Positions 18,634-21,689 of a stretch of DNA of 39,304 nt are shown piece by piece. The notes below the pieces were generated by a model. It was not told the DNA's origin. It searched no databases and was given only the letters and a program-made list of their open reading frames with translations. How positions within the stretch are numbered: the stretch's first letter is position 1; each line of letters starts with the position of its first letter. Made by a program: the position numbers and the translations under genes. The DNA comes from Clostridiales bacterium (GTDB lineage Bacteria > Bacillota > Clostridia > Oscillospirales > CAG-272), in the NCBI GenBank assembly GCA_004554105.1, contig SFNW01000004.1:1-39304 (forward strand). Direction: 5' to 3'.

Positions 18634-18696
18634 AAAGGCGGTCGGGAAACCGACCGCCTTTTTGTTGGGATAGCCCCTCAAAATCCGCAAAAACTT
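18634..18696 (+). repeat. Left copy of the direct repeat bracketing the SIR2/macro islet (terminator hairpin plus short family D tail)
   Basis: aaaggcggtcgggaaaccgaccgcctttttgttgggat..cccctcaaaatccgcaaaaactt. Compare with 21600-21689. Confidence 0.6.
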
Positions 18697-18698
18697 GA

Positions 18699-19571
18699 TT
18701 ATGTCCCGACGGCGCAAATCACTTTGCCGATGTCGCCGTCGATGCAGACCGACCGTTTTGCAAGTTCGGCGGGGCAAAAGCATTCGTGCAGGTTCACGCA
18801 GGCATACACCGCTTTTGCGTTCGCCGCCGTCATCCGCCAAAACGGATATTTGATAATCCCGGGCGTGTTCATGCCGACGCCGAGTTCGAGAAACAAGATG
18901 TGCGCCTCTCCGTGGTGGCGAAGAAACGACGCATAACGGTTCGCCGCGGCATACCAACCCTCGTCCTGCACAAAGGTGTCGTCACAACGCAGATTCATCG
19001 TCATCGGCGCGCCGCATATCGGGCATTTCGGAATCAGTTCGGACGGAATCCGCATATCCGTTTGCCGTATGTACATCTGCCGCACGGCTTCTTCATTGTC
19101 GTAGGTTTTATTATGGCAAGACTTGGAGCATTGCCACAGACCGTAATCGCCTTGCGTGTAAAACAAGTGCTGTTTATCAAATCCCGCCCGCTGAAACTGA
19201 TGGTCAACATTTGTCGTCAGCACAAAATAGTCCTTGTTTTGCACAAGCGCCAGCAAGTCGGCGTAGGGTTTGCCGACCGGACAATCATATCGGTTTACAA
19301 GAATATGCCTTGACCACCACGCCCAGTATTCTTCAAGTGTGGCATAGGGGTAAAAACCGCCCGCATACATATCGGTTATGCCGTACTTTCGGTTAAAATC
19401 CGCAAAATACGTTTCAAACCGCTTCCCGCCGTAGGTCAGCCCCGCCGACGCGGAAAGTCCCGCGCCCGCGCCGATCACGACAGCATCGGCGCTTCGGATT
19501 TCTTCGCGCAGCCGTTTGATCCTATCCGAGAAGCCTTCGGTAGATTTCGTAGTCAAAATCTTTGAAAACAT
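18699..19571 (-). CDS. SIR2-family protein, class-M-like (SirTM-type, predicted protein ADP-ribosyltransferase)
   Basis: ORF track, 290 aa. Diagnostic sequence: GAGAGLSASAG (NAD-binding), LTTNVDHQFQRAG (catalytic region with His), and the zinc ribbon CSKSC..CPICG. The start overlaps the upstream macrodomain gene by 50 nt. Confidence 0.75.
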   Translation of the reverse strand: MFSKILTTKSTEGFSDRIKRLREEIRSADAVVIGAGAGLSASAGLTYGGKRFETYFADFNRKYGITDMYAGGFYPYATLEEYWAWWSRHILVNRYDCPVGKPYADLLALVQNKDYFVLTTNVDHQFQRAGFDKQHLFYTQGDYGLWQCSKSCHNKTYDNEEAVRQMYIRQTDMRIPSELIPKCPICGAPMTMNLRCDDTFVQDEGWYAAANRYASFLRHHGEAHILFLELGVGMNTPGIIKYPFWRMTAANAKAVYACVNLHECFCPAELAKRSVCIDGDIGKVICAVGT

Positions 19572-20295
19572 TGAATATCACCTCGAGTTTGCTGTTCGTC
19601 TGTGCCTGATAGTCCCGCACGGTTTTGATTGCGATTTCGGCGGCTCTCTCATTCGGAAAATGAAATTCGCCCGTAGAAATGCAGCAAAACGCGATGCTCC
19701 GTATATCCTCCCGTTCGGCGAGTTCCAAGCACGAACGGTAGCAGGAAGCGAGCAAGTCACAGTCCTGCTGTGTCAGTTTTCCGCTGACAATCGGTCCGAC
19801 TGTGTGGAGAACATATTTGCAGGGCAGATTGTAGGCTTTTGTCAGCTTTGCCCTGCCTACCGGCTCTGCGTACCCCTGCTTTTCCATAATCTCTGCACAT
19901 TCCAAGCGAAGCTGTATGCCCGCGTAGGTATGAATCGCGTTGTCAATGCAGCCGTGGCAAGGGCAAAAGCAGCCGAGCAGCCCCGCATTTGCTGCATTGA
20001 CAATCGCATCGCAGCGAAGCGTTGTAATATCCCCCTGCCACAAATAAATATCCTTTGCAATCGGAGAAAGCGCCGACAAATCGGTGATACCCTTTGACGC
20101 GATTTCTTCCCGCAGATACTCGTCCTGCACCTTTAGGAAATCCGCACAGGCAGCCTGCGGCGGGCGAAGATTCAGCAAAGCGCGCAGAAGCCGTTTTTGC
20201 TCTGTTTCCTCGCTCGGTATCTGGATTCCCTTGTACCGCGGCTGCTCCGCCGATAACCGTTGAATCAATTGGATTCTTCTTTCCGCCTGTGTCAT
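19522..20295 (-). CDS. Macrodomain protein (protein-ADP-ribose hydrolase, zinc-dependent subclass)
   Basis: ORF track, 257 aa. The macro core is [47 protein letters not shown]. A Cys/His cluster (C.C.CH.C) is embedded in the core, and there is an ~80-aa N-terminal helical extension. Confidence 0.85.
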   Translation of the reverse strand: [257 protein letters not shown]

Positions 20296-20307
20296 CGGAT
20301 TTCCTCT

Positions 20308-20937
20308 TTACTCGGAAACAACGCTGATACGCTGTTGAATATGGTTCCCGCTTACGGCTTCGTCAACCATGGCGATTGCATAGTCCGCATAGCTGATGAC
20401 ACTTTCACCCTTGGCGTTCAGCGTCAGCTCCTCGCCGCCGAGTATATACTTGCCCGTGCGCGCACCGTCCGCGCGGAAATCACCGGCAGGACTGATGAAG
20501 GTCCACTTGACGTCCTTTCTTGTTCTCAGCTCTTCAAGCGCTTTTCCCTGTGCGGCTGCAAGCGGCTTAAACATCTCGGGAAAGCCGGGACCGTCCATAA
20601 CCTGAACGGTATGCTCGGGGTTTACATACAAACTGCCTGCGCCGCCGACCACAAGCAGACGGGTATTCGTGCCGGAAAGAATATCGCACAGATGCTTCAA
20701 AGAAGTGCTGTGCTGCGAGAGGGTTTCTGCCGTCCATGCGCCGAAGGCGTCAACCACGACATCAAAGCCCGCCAAATCGGCGGCAGTCAAATCGAACAAG
20801 TCCTTGTTCAGCACATTCCGTGCCGCAGTCCGATTCTCTCCACGCACGACGGCGGTCACATCGAGTCCTCTGTCTGCGGCTTCCTTGACAATGAGCTTGC
20901 CTGCTTTTCCGTTTGCACAAACAACTGCAATTTTCAT
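20308..20937 (-). CDS. NAD(P)H-binding oxidoreductase (NmrA/YwnB-like atypical SDR)
   Basis: The ORF track frame starts at 21009. The start is set at ATG 20937 after AAGGAGGA. Diagnostic sequence: MKIAVVCANGKAGKLIVKEA. Confidence 0.8.
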   Translation of the reverse strand: MKIAVVCANGKAGKLIVKEAADRGLDVTAVVRGENRTAARNVLNKDLFDLTAADLAGFDVVVDAFGAWTAETLSQHSTSLKHLCDILSGTNTRLLVVGGAGSLYVNPEHTVQVMDGPGFPEMFKPLAAAQGKALEELRTRKDVKWTFISPAGDFRADGARTGKYILGGEELTLNAKGESVISYADYAIAMVDEAVSGNHIQQRISVVSE

Positions 20938-21175
20938 TTTCTGTTCCTCCTTGGTTTTGGTTCGGTCATTTCCGAAAGTTCTTGAATGTTCCTTTTTGTC
21001 TGCGAGCATCGGAGCGGCCGTTCCCCTAAGCTCGTCTTCATTATAGACCGCATCGTTTCTTTTGTAAAGTAAGCACTAATTTGTGCTGTAGTTACCGAAT
21101 CGAAACAATTGTGTATTCATGCGGCATTTCGGCATAAGAATTTTTTCAAAGCAGGCTGAATTTTGCTTTCGGGCA

Positions 21176-21204
21176 TTGACAAATTCGGGTGCGGGGCGTA
21201 CAAT
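21176..21204 (+). promoter_or_regulatory. Promoter of the HxlR-family gene with flanking inverted repeat
   Basis: TTGACA (21176-21181), 17-nt spacer, TACAAT (21199-21204). TTGACAA (21176-21182) and TTGTCAA (21209-21215) form an inverted repeat. A further palindrome, agcac-N6-gtgct, lies at 21072-21087. Confidence 0.45.
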
Positions 21205-21246
21205 TTAGTTGTCAAATCCTTTCGGAAATGCTTGAGGAGACATTTT

Positions 21247-21594
21247 ATGTGCGAACAAAAAACAATCAAGGAACTCCCCGCCTGCCCCGTGGAAACAACG
21301 CTGACCTTAATCGGCGACAAGTGGAAGGTTTTGATTCTGCGAGACTTGATGTCGGGGACAAAGCGGTTCGGCGAACTGAAAAAGTCTGTCGGCAGCGTGT
21401 CGCAAAAGGTTTTGACCGCGCAGCTTCGCGACATGGAAGCGAGCGGGCTGGTCAGCCGAAAAGTCTATGCAGAAGTGCCGCCGCGGGTAGAGTATTCCCT
21501 GACCGCGCTCGGGCAGAGCCTGAAGCCGATTCTCGATGCGATGTGGAGTTGGGGCGAGGATTACAAAGCGTCCAATCTTGCAAAATCCAAATAA
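21247..21594 (+). CDS. HxlR-family winged-helix transcriptional regulator
   Basis: The ORF track frame starts at 21163. The start is set at ATG 21247 after GAGGAG. Diagnostic sequence: CPVETTLTLIGDKWKVLILRDL..RFGELKK..SQKVLTAQLRDMEASGLV.RKVY.EVPPRVEYSLT. Confidence 0.9.
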   Translation: MCEQKTIKELPACPVETTLTLIGDKWKVLILRDLMSGTKRFGELKKSVGSVSQKVLTAQLRDMEASGLVSRKVYAEVPPRVEYSLTALGQSLKPILDAMWSWGEDYKASNLAKSK

Positions 21595-21599
21595 AGTGC

Positions 21600-21689
21600 A
21601 AAAGGCGGTCGGAAAATCCGATCGCCTTTTTTGTTGGAATGCAAATTGCGGGGCGTTGCCCCGCCCCTTCGAAACCCGCAAAAAACTTT
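21600..21689 (+). repeat. Right copy of the direct repeat bracketing the SIR2/macro islet (terminator hairpin plus family D tail D3)
   Basis: aaaaggcggtcggaaaatccgatcgccttttttgttggaat..gcggggcgttgccccgccccttcgaaacccgcaaaaaacttt. Confidence 0.6.

Follow-up and report, generated by a model that had tools for sequence, protein, structure and literature searches.

A lone SirTM/Zn-Macro pair in an HxlR-associated redox gene cassette of an uncultured Oscillospirales-like Clostridium

The genes considered here lie on contig SFNW01000004.1 of a Clostridiales bacterium (assembly GCA_004554105.1), in a stretch of 39,304 nt that is referred to below as the window. A sirtuin (SIR2-type) gene and a macrodomain gene overlap at the end of an operon, and the gene of an HxlR-family regulator is transcribed divergently from it. 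The initial annotation of this DNA, made from the sequence alone, had described the two genes as a writer and an eraser of ADP-ribosylation lying on an islet of low GC content.

Genes and enzymes of the cassette

The cassette consists of four genes:

18699..19571, minus strand: SirTM gene (SIR2-type open reading frame, ORF), 290 aa, predicted NAD+-dependent protein mono-ADP-ribosyltransferase
19522..20295, minus strand: Zn-Macro gene, 257 aa, zinc-dependent macrodomain of the MacroD type, predicted protein-ADP-ribose hydrolase
20308..20937, minus strand: gene of an NAD(P)H-binding atypical short-chain dehydrogenase/reductase (SDR) resembling a "putative NADH-flavin reductase", 209 aa, first gene of the operon
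21247..21594, plus strand: gene of an HxlR/DUF24-family regulator, 115 aa, nearest to Bacillus subtilis HypR (YybR)

The SirTM and Zn-Macro genes overlap, by their ORF coordinates, by exactly 50 nt (19522-19571). Both ORFs, their positions and this overlap agree with the initial annotation, and all peptide strings cited there are present in the ORFs. The stop codon of the reductase-like gene is followed after 12 nt by the macrodomain start, and Shine-Dalgarno-like sequences are seen 5-8 nt 5' of the start in all four genes. The likely true starts are ATG at 20937 for the reductase-like gene (MKIAVV) and ATG at 21247 for the HxlR gene. The SirTM/Zn-Macro pair is the 3' end of a three-gene operon (reductase-like gene, Zn-Macro, SirTM) divergent from HxlR.

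Its closest matches and diagnostic residues identify the SIR2 protein as a genuine class-M sirtuin (SirTM). In a search against all PDB sequences it matches SpySirTM of Streptococcus pyogenes (5a3a) over the full length with E = 1.5e-75, at about 50% identity. The second match is the fungal macro-SirTM fusion Mfs1 (8rsn, 1.3e-26), and no deacylase sirtuin or member of another sirtuin class was found in this search at E <= 0.01. The Pfam SIR2 score is below threshold (18.5 bits, cutoff 24), and the NCBIfam models of CobB-type deacylases score 17-26 bits against cutoffs of 243-320. The catalytic residues, as defined in PMC4518038, were mapped by alignment to SpySirTM. Gln140 (in LFYTQGDYG) aligns with Gln137 of SpySirTM, the glutamine that takes the place of the universal catalytic histidine. 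Asn121, Arg195 and Asn260 correspond to Asn118, Arg192 and Asn258, the motif GVGMNTP is found at residues 231-237, and the zinc cysteines C148, C152, C183 and C186 align with the four cysteines of the SpySirTM small domain. The diagnostic residues and the exclusive matches to SirTMs decide the class-M assignment. Protein ADP-ribosyltransferase activity is predicted on these grounds.

By the same kind of comparison, the macrodomain is a true Zn-Macro. It scores 374.9 bits with the NCBIfam model NF003163 (protein-ADP-ribose hydrolase), where the cutoff is 272, with full-length coverage, and 134 bits with Pfam Macro. The best structural match is MorMacro of Methanobrevibacter oralis (8rsi, 4e-79), which represents the archaeal one of the three Zn-Macro sub-branches solved in Ariza 2024 (PMC11490716). 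It is followed by SauMacro of Staphylococcus aureus (5kiv, 1.6e-74; 5kiv and 8rsl both about 2e-74; about 50% identity) and by the S. pyogenes Zn-Macro (8rsm, 7e-63). With motifs defined as in PMC11490716, the protein has the Zn-loop Cx4HxC (C109-FCPC-H114-G-C116, that is, CFCPCHGC at 109-116), NAAN at 100-103 and the Dx3H dyad DNAIH at 118-122. Thus the Cys/His zinc ligands looked for by alignment to the S. aureus and S. pyogenes Zn-macrodomains are present. The N-terminal extension has about 80 residues, and its alignment starts at residue 19 in the case of MorMacro and at residue 12 in that of SauMacro. The enzyme is predicted to remove protein-linked ADP-ribose in a zinc-dependent manner. 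The original proposal of a class-M sirtuin with a zinc macrodomain is therefore upheld by the PDB matches, the diagnostic residues and the NCBIfam model.

The redox module and its relatives

The reductase-like protein belongs to Pfam PF13460 (NAD_binding_10, 56 bits), and its nearest PDB entry is 4r01 ("putative NADH-flavin reductase", 1.4e-73). It had been described as an NmrA-like NAD(P)H oxidoreductase; the NmrA label is only approximate (20 bits, below cutoff). The regulator scores 119 bits with Pfam PF01638, and its best solved relative is HypR/YybR of B. subtilis (4a5m, 1.7e-28). Redox sensors of the HxlR/DUF24 family have a conserved reactive N-terminal cysteine at the start of helix 1, with valine and glutamate two and three residues on, and HypR, via Cys14, responds to disulphide or hypochlorite stress by activating a flavin oxidoreductase gene (PMC3351151). 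The window protein has the corresponding residues, Cys13-Pro-Val15-Glu16 for the reactive Cys14/Val16/Glu17 of HypR, and Cys13 is kept in at least 90% of 48 orthologues.

The divergent intergenic region contains two candidate promoters and a candidate regulatory site:

21040..21068, minus strand: promoter-like site of the reductase/Zn-Macro/SirTM operon, TTTACA-17-TATAAT, 11 of 12 consensus matches
21176..21204, plus strand: promoter-like site of the HxlR gene, TTGACA-17-TACAAT
21064..21095, no strand: operator-like imperfect palindrome, GTAAAGTAAGCAC-N6-GTGCTGTAGTTAC, overlapping the -35 box of the operon

Of 51 distinct regions upstream of HxlR genes in other species, 43 contain the core of the left half-site, AGTA[AC]GCAC, and the 80% consensus of these 43 sites gives the full operator-like motif, tTGTAAAGTA[A/C]GCAC-N6-GTG..TAGTTACC. 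The motif is unique in the window (21064-21095; chance expectation 0). The comparison thus reveals a conserved operator-like site over the operon -35 box, which is a candidate operator.

A protein search for relatives of SirTM gave at least 8000 clusters at E <= 1e-20, and a scan with one genome per species found close relatives in at least 596 genomes. Among the matches listed, the carriers are mostly metagenome-assembled genomes of gut Oscillospiraceae, Acutalibacteraceae and Lachnospiraceae, with Anaerovibrio and a spirochaete in addition; Massiliimalia massiliensis and Bianquea renquensis are among the cultured carriers. The macrodomain gene is directly upstream of SirTM in 75 of the 77 related loci with enough sequence. 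A close HxlR orthologue is found divergently upstream in 35 of the 52 loci whose upstream sequence extends to 5.5 kb or more. Orthologues of the reductase-like gene (69-83% identity) lie at most 7 kb upstream of SirTM in 22 of 80 loci (21 by ORF clustering), and ten loci, judged from tblastn match offsets, seem to share the four-gene layout of the window itself. The median amino acid identity to the window across the related loci is 83% for HxlR, 69% for SirTM and 66% for Macro.

The NAD_binding_10 protein (80%) and HxlR (83%) are better conserved across the compared loci (L011-L090) than SirTM or Macro. Small regulators are seldom as well conserved as HxlR is here. Strong constraint could account for the difference, as could a recent exchange of the cassette's 5' half.

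In the first relatives inspected, with SirTM 76-79% identical, HxlR is divergent from an operon ending in Macro-SirTM and the 50-nt overlap is retained. The upstream genes there encode NAD_binding_10 or SnoaL proteins and then PNPOx-like/4Fe-4S proteins, and the chromosomal surroundings differ. Among the related loci in general, the pair sits in redox operons of three to six genes. The genes between the regulator and the pair, and the alternative regulator, are distributed as follows:

PNPOx_N with 4Fe-4S: 34 loci
NAD_binding_10: 21 loci
small PNPOx-like flavin mononucleotide (FMN) protein: 18 loci
unannotated protein of 263 aa: 15 loci
SnoaL-like: 6 loci
S-component of the energy-coupling factor (ECF) type: 5 loci
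Rrf2 regulator in place of HxlR: 8 loci, all without HxlR

The intervening genes vary, and their common theme is flavin/NAD(P)H redox proteins. More distant pairs have a similar setting. A lone pair on a Roseburia plasmid is annotated with a helix-turn-helix gene divergent from genes of a nitroreductase, a 4Fe-4S protein, Macro and SirTM. On the Enterococcus casseliflavus plasmid NZ_CP068131.1 (2752-6933 of the extracted locus, L103) an Rrf2 gene is divergent from genes of an SDR, Zn-Macro, SirTM, a PNPOx-family protein and a NUDIX hydrolase. The latter may be an ADP-ribose pyrophosphatase. The link of the pair to a module of HxlR and NAD(P)H oxidoreductase, noticed at first in this single locus, is therefore real and kept across dozens of species.

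In one widespread relative (L008-L010, about 8.9-16.9 kb) an HxlR/SnoaL/PNPOx/Macro/SirTM cassette abuts a type I restriction-modification shufflon that contains several hsdS genes and an integrase, a gene of NADAR (another ADP-ribose-processing family) and DUF3990. PemK toxin, sortase and TraG-like genes in the vicinity indicate a mobile-element setting.

No gene of the GcvH-L/LplA2 type accompanies the pair. A Pfam scan of the cassette genes, their two neighbours and ten further window ORFs found no GCV_H or BPL_LplA_LipB domain, the remaining window genes being identified by eye or synteny only. No GcvH or LplA match was found in the window or in 90 related loci by tblastn with Escherichia coli GcvH and LplA seeds, a search weaker than one with hidden Markov models; with the same seeds none of the 80 related loci has one within about 8 kb of SirTM. 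Instead of gcvH-L and lplA2, the pair is flanked by the NADH-flavin-reductase-like gene on one side and by a terminator and then a P-type ATPase gene on the other. The linked oxidoreductase is of the NAD_binding_10 type, or in the relatives PNPOx/4Fe-4S, SnoaL or nitroreductase, and not an old yellow enzyme (OYE) or a luciferase-like monooxygenase (LLM). Independent or "lone" SirTM/Zn-Macro operons have been described (Rack 2015, PMC4518038; Ariza 2024, PMC11490716), and the context classes of Ariza 2024 are the pair alone, the extended operon and the fusion (PMC11490716). The initial annotation was thus right about the absence of the canonical partners in the window, but not in treating it as unusual: lone operons were already described, and close SirTM relatives are present in at least 596 genomes. 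The locus is a lone SirTM/Zn-Macro pair, an already known configuration, and not a new kind of system.

One possibility is that the pair works as in Staphylococcus and Streptococcus and has lost nothing but the gene linkage: the substrate of SirTM would be a GcvH-type lipoylated carrier or some other lipoyl protein whose gene lies elsewhere in the genome. So far GcvH-L is the sole known SirTM target, the targets of lone pairs being an acknowledged question (PMC11490716); all catalytic residues of SirTM are conserved, and the inspected part of the genome is only 39 kb. On the other hand, no GcvH or LplA gene accompanies SirTM in the loci searched above, and the consistently linked genes encode flavin/NAD(P)H proteins and a redox regulator. 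Moreover, the Zn-Macros of lone pairs are unable to demodify SpyGcvH-L and have no positive surface patch of the kind that binds GcvH-L (PMC11490716). A lipoyl target acting in trans is therefore rather unlikely.

The islet and its borders

The features in and around the islet are as follows:

18600..21720, no strand: inserted or replaced DNA (islet), delimited by breaks of collinearity with relatives
21720..21828, minus strand: remnant of a GDSL/SGNH-type hydrolase gene, about 36 codons, from alignment with the relative L098
18536..18571, no strand: GC-rich hairpin 3' of the P-type ATPase gene (terminator scan), with an A-tract on one side and a T-tract on the minus strand
18634..18697, plus strand: left repeat, hairpin GGCGGTCGG-GAAA-CCGACCGCC with a T-tract on the plus strand, then the generic tail AATCCGCAAAAACTT
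21600..21689, plus strand: right repeat, in which the hairpin and T-tract of the left one are followed by a GCGGGGC/GCCCCGC hairpin and the generic tail AACCCGCAAAAAACTT

The GC content of 18600-21865 is 0.523, lower than in any other 3.3-kb stretch of the window, the remainder of which has 0.587. At third codon positions (GC3) the four cassette genes have values of 0.60-0.68 against 0.71-0.84 in 24 host genes (mean 0.772, sd 0.033; Mann-Whitney p = 4.9e-5), all four being under the host minimum. Thus the lower GC content, judged by eye at first, holds when computed against the flanks.

In the relatives L094, L095 and L101 the site is empty: ksgA, tdk and the P-type ATPase gene are followed, after 231-280 nt, by convergent ymdB and rny. 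The window is collinear with these three up to 18599 and again from 21866 onwards, and in place of the islet they have 231 nt. The arrangement predicted for an unoccupied site, with the ATPase gene directly followed by ymdB, was therefore found in two related lineages (YmdB 82% identical in L094/L095, ATPase 86% identical in L101; collinear DNA about 79-83%). The left junction is at about 18599/18600, and the right one at about 21720 relative to L098 or at 21865 relative to L094/L101. L098 is a closer relative (YmdB 94% identical), in which a GDSL/SGNH-type gene with an intact 5' end lies right after ymdB. In the window this frame runs from 21828 to about 21720 and continues into foreign sequence up to a stop at 21688. 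The gene is truncated at the junction, and therefore DNA was either replaced or inserted with loss of some of the original sequence. At the nucleotide level, similarity to the cassettes of other species is limited to 18715-21574, which covers the coding and divergent intergenic regions. Other copies of the cassette have unrelated flanks, including a mobile-element region with TraG-like and sortase genes and an integrase-containing type I restriction-modification locus. The islet contains no integrase or transposase gene. No empty site from the same species was obtained, as the closest YmdB relatives (94-96% identity) are on contigs of 1.2-1.5 kb, and no ATPase relatives above 86% identity were found.

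The four genes are compositionally foreign, and the cassette of about 3.1 kb was probably acquired horizontally by an uncultured Oscillospirales-like Clostridium. It could be argued instead that the site held the genes ancestrally and that the relatives lost them by deletion, the repeats being unrelated terminators. The region 3' of ymdB is rearranged in every relative examined, and the empty-site genomes are as diverged in DNA as stated above, both of which would suit such a history. This alternative is improbable given that the GC3 of each of the four genes is under the minimum of the host genes, that the same cassette occurs in unrelated flanks in many families, and that the neighbouring GDSL-type gene is truncated exactly at the junction.

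The GC-rich hairpin at 18536..18571 probably terminates the minus-strand SirTM operon. It is a host backbone element, also kept in L094, L095 and L101. This ATPase terminator hairpin and the following CCCCTTTCAAAGGACTTTGAA (window 18512-18593) are also found 3' of another, heavy-metal, ATPase gene in the relative L091, and thus form a further small repeated intergenic module.

The two repeats are direct copies, the right one with a 23-nt insertion. The left repeat ends 2 nt from the SirTM stop codon, and the right repeat starts 5 nt past that of HxlR. The RNA fold z-scores are -4.4 and -4.15, respectively. The right hairpin with its T-tract would be a good intrinsic terminator for HxlR, whereas the left one is in the wrong orientation to terminate SirTM. 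A duplication explains this better than the independent evolution of two terminators does. The tail, AAYCCGCAAAAA(A)CTT, has 6 copies in the window against 0.04 expected by chance. Besides both borders, it occurs near 12408, 25544, 28306 and 30585, in ordinary intergenic regions, and together with the preceding GC hairpins it is part of a structured element of about 55-85 nt. It is absent from the 97 loci compared, including the host's relatives L091-L097, and scattered in the window; therefore it is a generic intergenic repeat specific to this lineage. What is restricted to the two borders is only the hairpin GGCGGTCGG-loop-CCGAYCGCC with the ~10 nt that follow. Neither repeat copy is found in the empty sites (L094, L095, L101) or in the cassettes of other species. 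Of the claim that direct repeats bracket the islet, the copies themselves are confirmed, but they are not borders specific to the cassette, the tail being generic and the other cassettes having none. The opposite view, that the repeats are generic 3' elements, is true in part: it applies to the tail and not to the hairpin confined to the two borders. Recombination at a repeat is possible.

Several identities considered for the repeats were rejected. A target-site duplication or att site disagrees with the lack of a copy in the empty sites, the position of both copies inside the insert and the lack of an integrase or transposase. An integron attC site disagrees with the lack of an array and an integrase and with the scattering of the element in ordinary intergenic regions. 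A metagenome scan for the border hairpin gave a single contig, of 1.7 kb (L100), which is unrelated: it has none of the surrounding sequence, and a 9-bp GC stem can arise independently. A scan of the whole window with Rfam at gathering thresholds matched the repeats to no curated RNA family.

The structured repeat family is present at 12340-12425, 25505-25559 (minus strand), 28270-28321 (minus strand) and 30520-30602, and partially at 18656-18697 and 21640-21689. A closing stem TGCGGA/TCCGCA encloses the hairpins GCGGGGC-N3-GCCCCG and AAGGGGC-T6GTA6-GCCCCTT, and is followed by AAAAAACTT. With six copies in the 39-kb window and none in about 60 kb from related genomes, the family looks like a lineage-specific element of the type of repetitive extragenic palindromes or miniature inverted-repeat transposable elements (REP/MITE-like). 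A second short intergenic repeat (family D9 of the repeat scan), GCCTCCCTC-TT-GAGGGAGGTGGCACG, a hairpin plus GGTGGCACG, has four copies at 3499-3525, 5968-5994, 12509-12535 and 28131-28157.

Among other features of the window, a single tRNA gene at 14014-14086 (minus strand) is the sole Rfam match. The gene of the redox chaperone Hsp33 (hslO, 2631-3456, minus strand) is broken into two overlapping ORFs in different frames, an N-terminal part at 2890-3456 and a C-terminal part at 2631-3017 that covers positions 165-273 of Pfam HSP33. This is an apparent frameshift, due to either a pseudogene or an assembly error.

Predicted role and comparison with known systems

The following mechanism can be proposed. 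The HypR-like HxlR protein would sense thiol-reactive oxidants or electrophiles via Cys13 and switch on the operon, by derepression or by activation. SirTM would use NAD+ to mono-ADP-ribosylate a protein target other than an operon-encoded GcvH-L, and Zn-Macro would remove the mark, providing a reversible switch alongside flavin/NAD(P)H-dependent detoxification. A redox-stress role would parallel that of the characterised extended operon, in which SirTM is tied to oxidative stress and to oxidoreductase genes (PMC4518038; PMC12440151). The picture of a horizontally acquired, redox-regulated cassette of HxlR and reductase/Zn-Macro/SirTM acting as a reversible ADP-ribosylation switch builds on the enzyme identities, the operon packing, the recurrent module, the conserved operator-like site, the foreign composition and the empty sites, all established by sequence comparison. 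We assign it a probability of about 0.6.

Several points weigh against this picture. The HxlR protein of the window has no counterpart of Cys49 of HypR, its sole other cysteine being the non-conserved Cys2; therefore the sensing chemistry may differ from that of HypR, and a one-cysteine mechanism would be needed. The sequence does not tell a repressor from an activator here. HxlR is missing from about one third of the related loci, so that the link is frequent and not obligatory, and the 80 species loci, being those closest to the window SirTM, do not sample lone pairs at random. That the indel is a gain here and not a loss in the relatives is read from composition and from the scattered distribution of the cassette, not from a phylogeny. 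Finally, the mechanism for this clade is inferred from sequence.

Two further readings concern the pair itself. The initial annotation had pointed to the layout of DarTG and to phage defence, in which case the macrodomain would restrain a SIR2 effector that is toxic through NAD consumption or ADP-ribosylation, and the pair would be a module for phage defence or of the toxin-antitoxin kind. SIR2 domains serve in several defence systems, the writer and eraser genes overlap, and one related cassette lies beside a type I restriction-modification locus with NADAR and PemK toxin genes. However, PADLOC models gave no match among the four cassette proteins, and the pair is the distal part of a regulated metabolic redox operon in dozens of species. 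In L046 an intact SirTM gene has no adjacent macrodomain gene, and in L090 it precedes it (order SirTM, PNPOx, Macro). The order of genes does not help either: darT precedes darG, and hence the analogy to the eraser-first pair is weak. Characterised SirTMs are specific protein modifiers and not toxins (PMC4518038). The defence suggestions thus find no support, and we consider such a module very unlikely. An ordinary sirtuin deacylase with a MacroD enzyme clearing its O-acyl-ADP-ribose product would account for the weak matches to CobB-type models and to an O-acetyl-ADP-ribose deacetylase model, but it can hardly be maintained when the catalytic histidine is replaced by Gln140, the class-M hallmark, all deacylase models remain far under their cutoffs, SirTMs have shown no deacylase activity (PMC4518038), and the macrodomain, with its Zn-loop, scores above the cutoff of the protein-ADP-ribose hydrolase model.

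Returning to the redox-regulated switch, a bolder form of it, to which we would give somewhat less than even odds, is that the HypR-like regulator, the variable redox genes and Zn-Macro/SirTM make up an undescribed mobile stress regulon of gut anaerobes with a non-lipoyl SirTM target. This target could be a co-encoded flavoprotein or the unusually conserved regulator itself. If true, such a regulon would be a second branch of SirTM biology, distinct from GcvH-L.

The locus and its relatives offer handles on the targets of lone pairs: a likely class of inducers (thiol-reactive oxidants or electrophiles), a defined candidate operator, and a short list of flavin/NAD(P)H proteins consistently encoded with the pair, any of which may be its partner or target. 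Among abundant gut Clostridia the pair moves as a small cassette, which bears on the way commensal anaerobes cope with oxidants derived from the host or the diet. In the literature searched, HxlR, macrodomain and sirtuin were not found together, and the HxlR/flavin-protein context of a lone pair is possibly undescribed.

Four known systems can be compared with the window locus. DarT/DarG is alike in the genetic coupling of an ADP-ribosyltransferase to a macrodomain that reverses its product. However, DarT has the ADP-ribosyltransferase (ART) fold and modifies DNA, and DarG is TARG1-like, whereas the window encodes a sirtuin fold and a macrodomain of the Zn-MacroD type; moreover, the window pair is not an autonomous two-gene module and has no PADLOC match.

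The HypR-hypO and YodB-azoR1/yodC systems of B. subtilis (PMC3351151) share with the window an HxlR protein with N-terminal Cys-x-Val-Glu adjoining a flavin/NAD(P)H reductase gene. The window operon differs by the addition of an ADP-ribosylation writer and eraser and by the absence of Cys49, and its regulation is a prediction.

In the extended SirTM operon (gcvH-L, macro, sirTM, lplA2, OYE and LLM in S. aureus and S. pyogenes) the same two enzyme families are encoded by overlapping genes, with linked genes of flavin-dependent oxidoreductases and a likely connection to oxidative stress. The window has no GcvH-L/LplA2, and NAD_binding_10, PNPOx/4Fe-4S and SnoaL proteins are found in loci of its type instead of OYE/LLM. 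In addition, loci of this type have a dedicated adjacent regulator, HxlR or Rrf2.

The closest counterparts are the lone SirTM/Zn-Macro pairs of Enterococcus faecalis, Treponema pedis and M. oralis (PMC4518038, PMC11490716), in which the adjacent genes overlap and GcvH-L/LplA are likewise absent. The window pair differs from them in ending an operon that begins with a reductase-like gene and has a HypR-like HxlR regulator and a conserved operator-like site. What is added here to the known lone pairs is this conserved HypR-like regulator with its operator-like site, the flavin-protein context, and the small transferable cassette.

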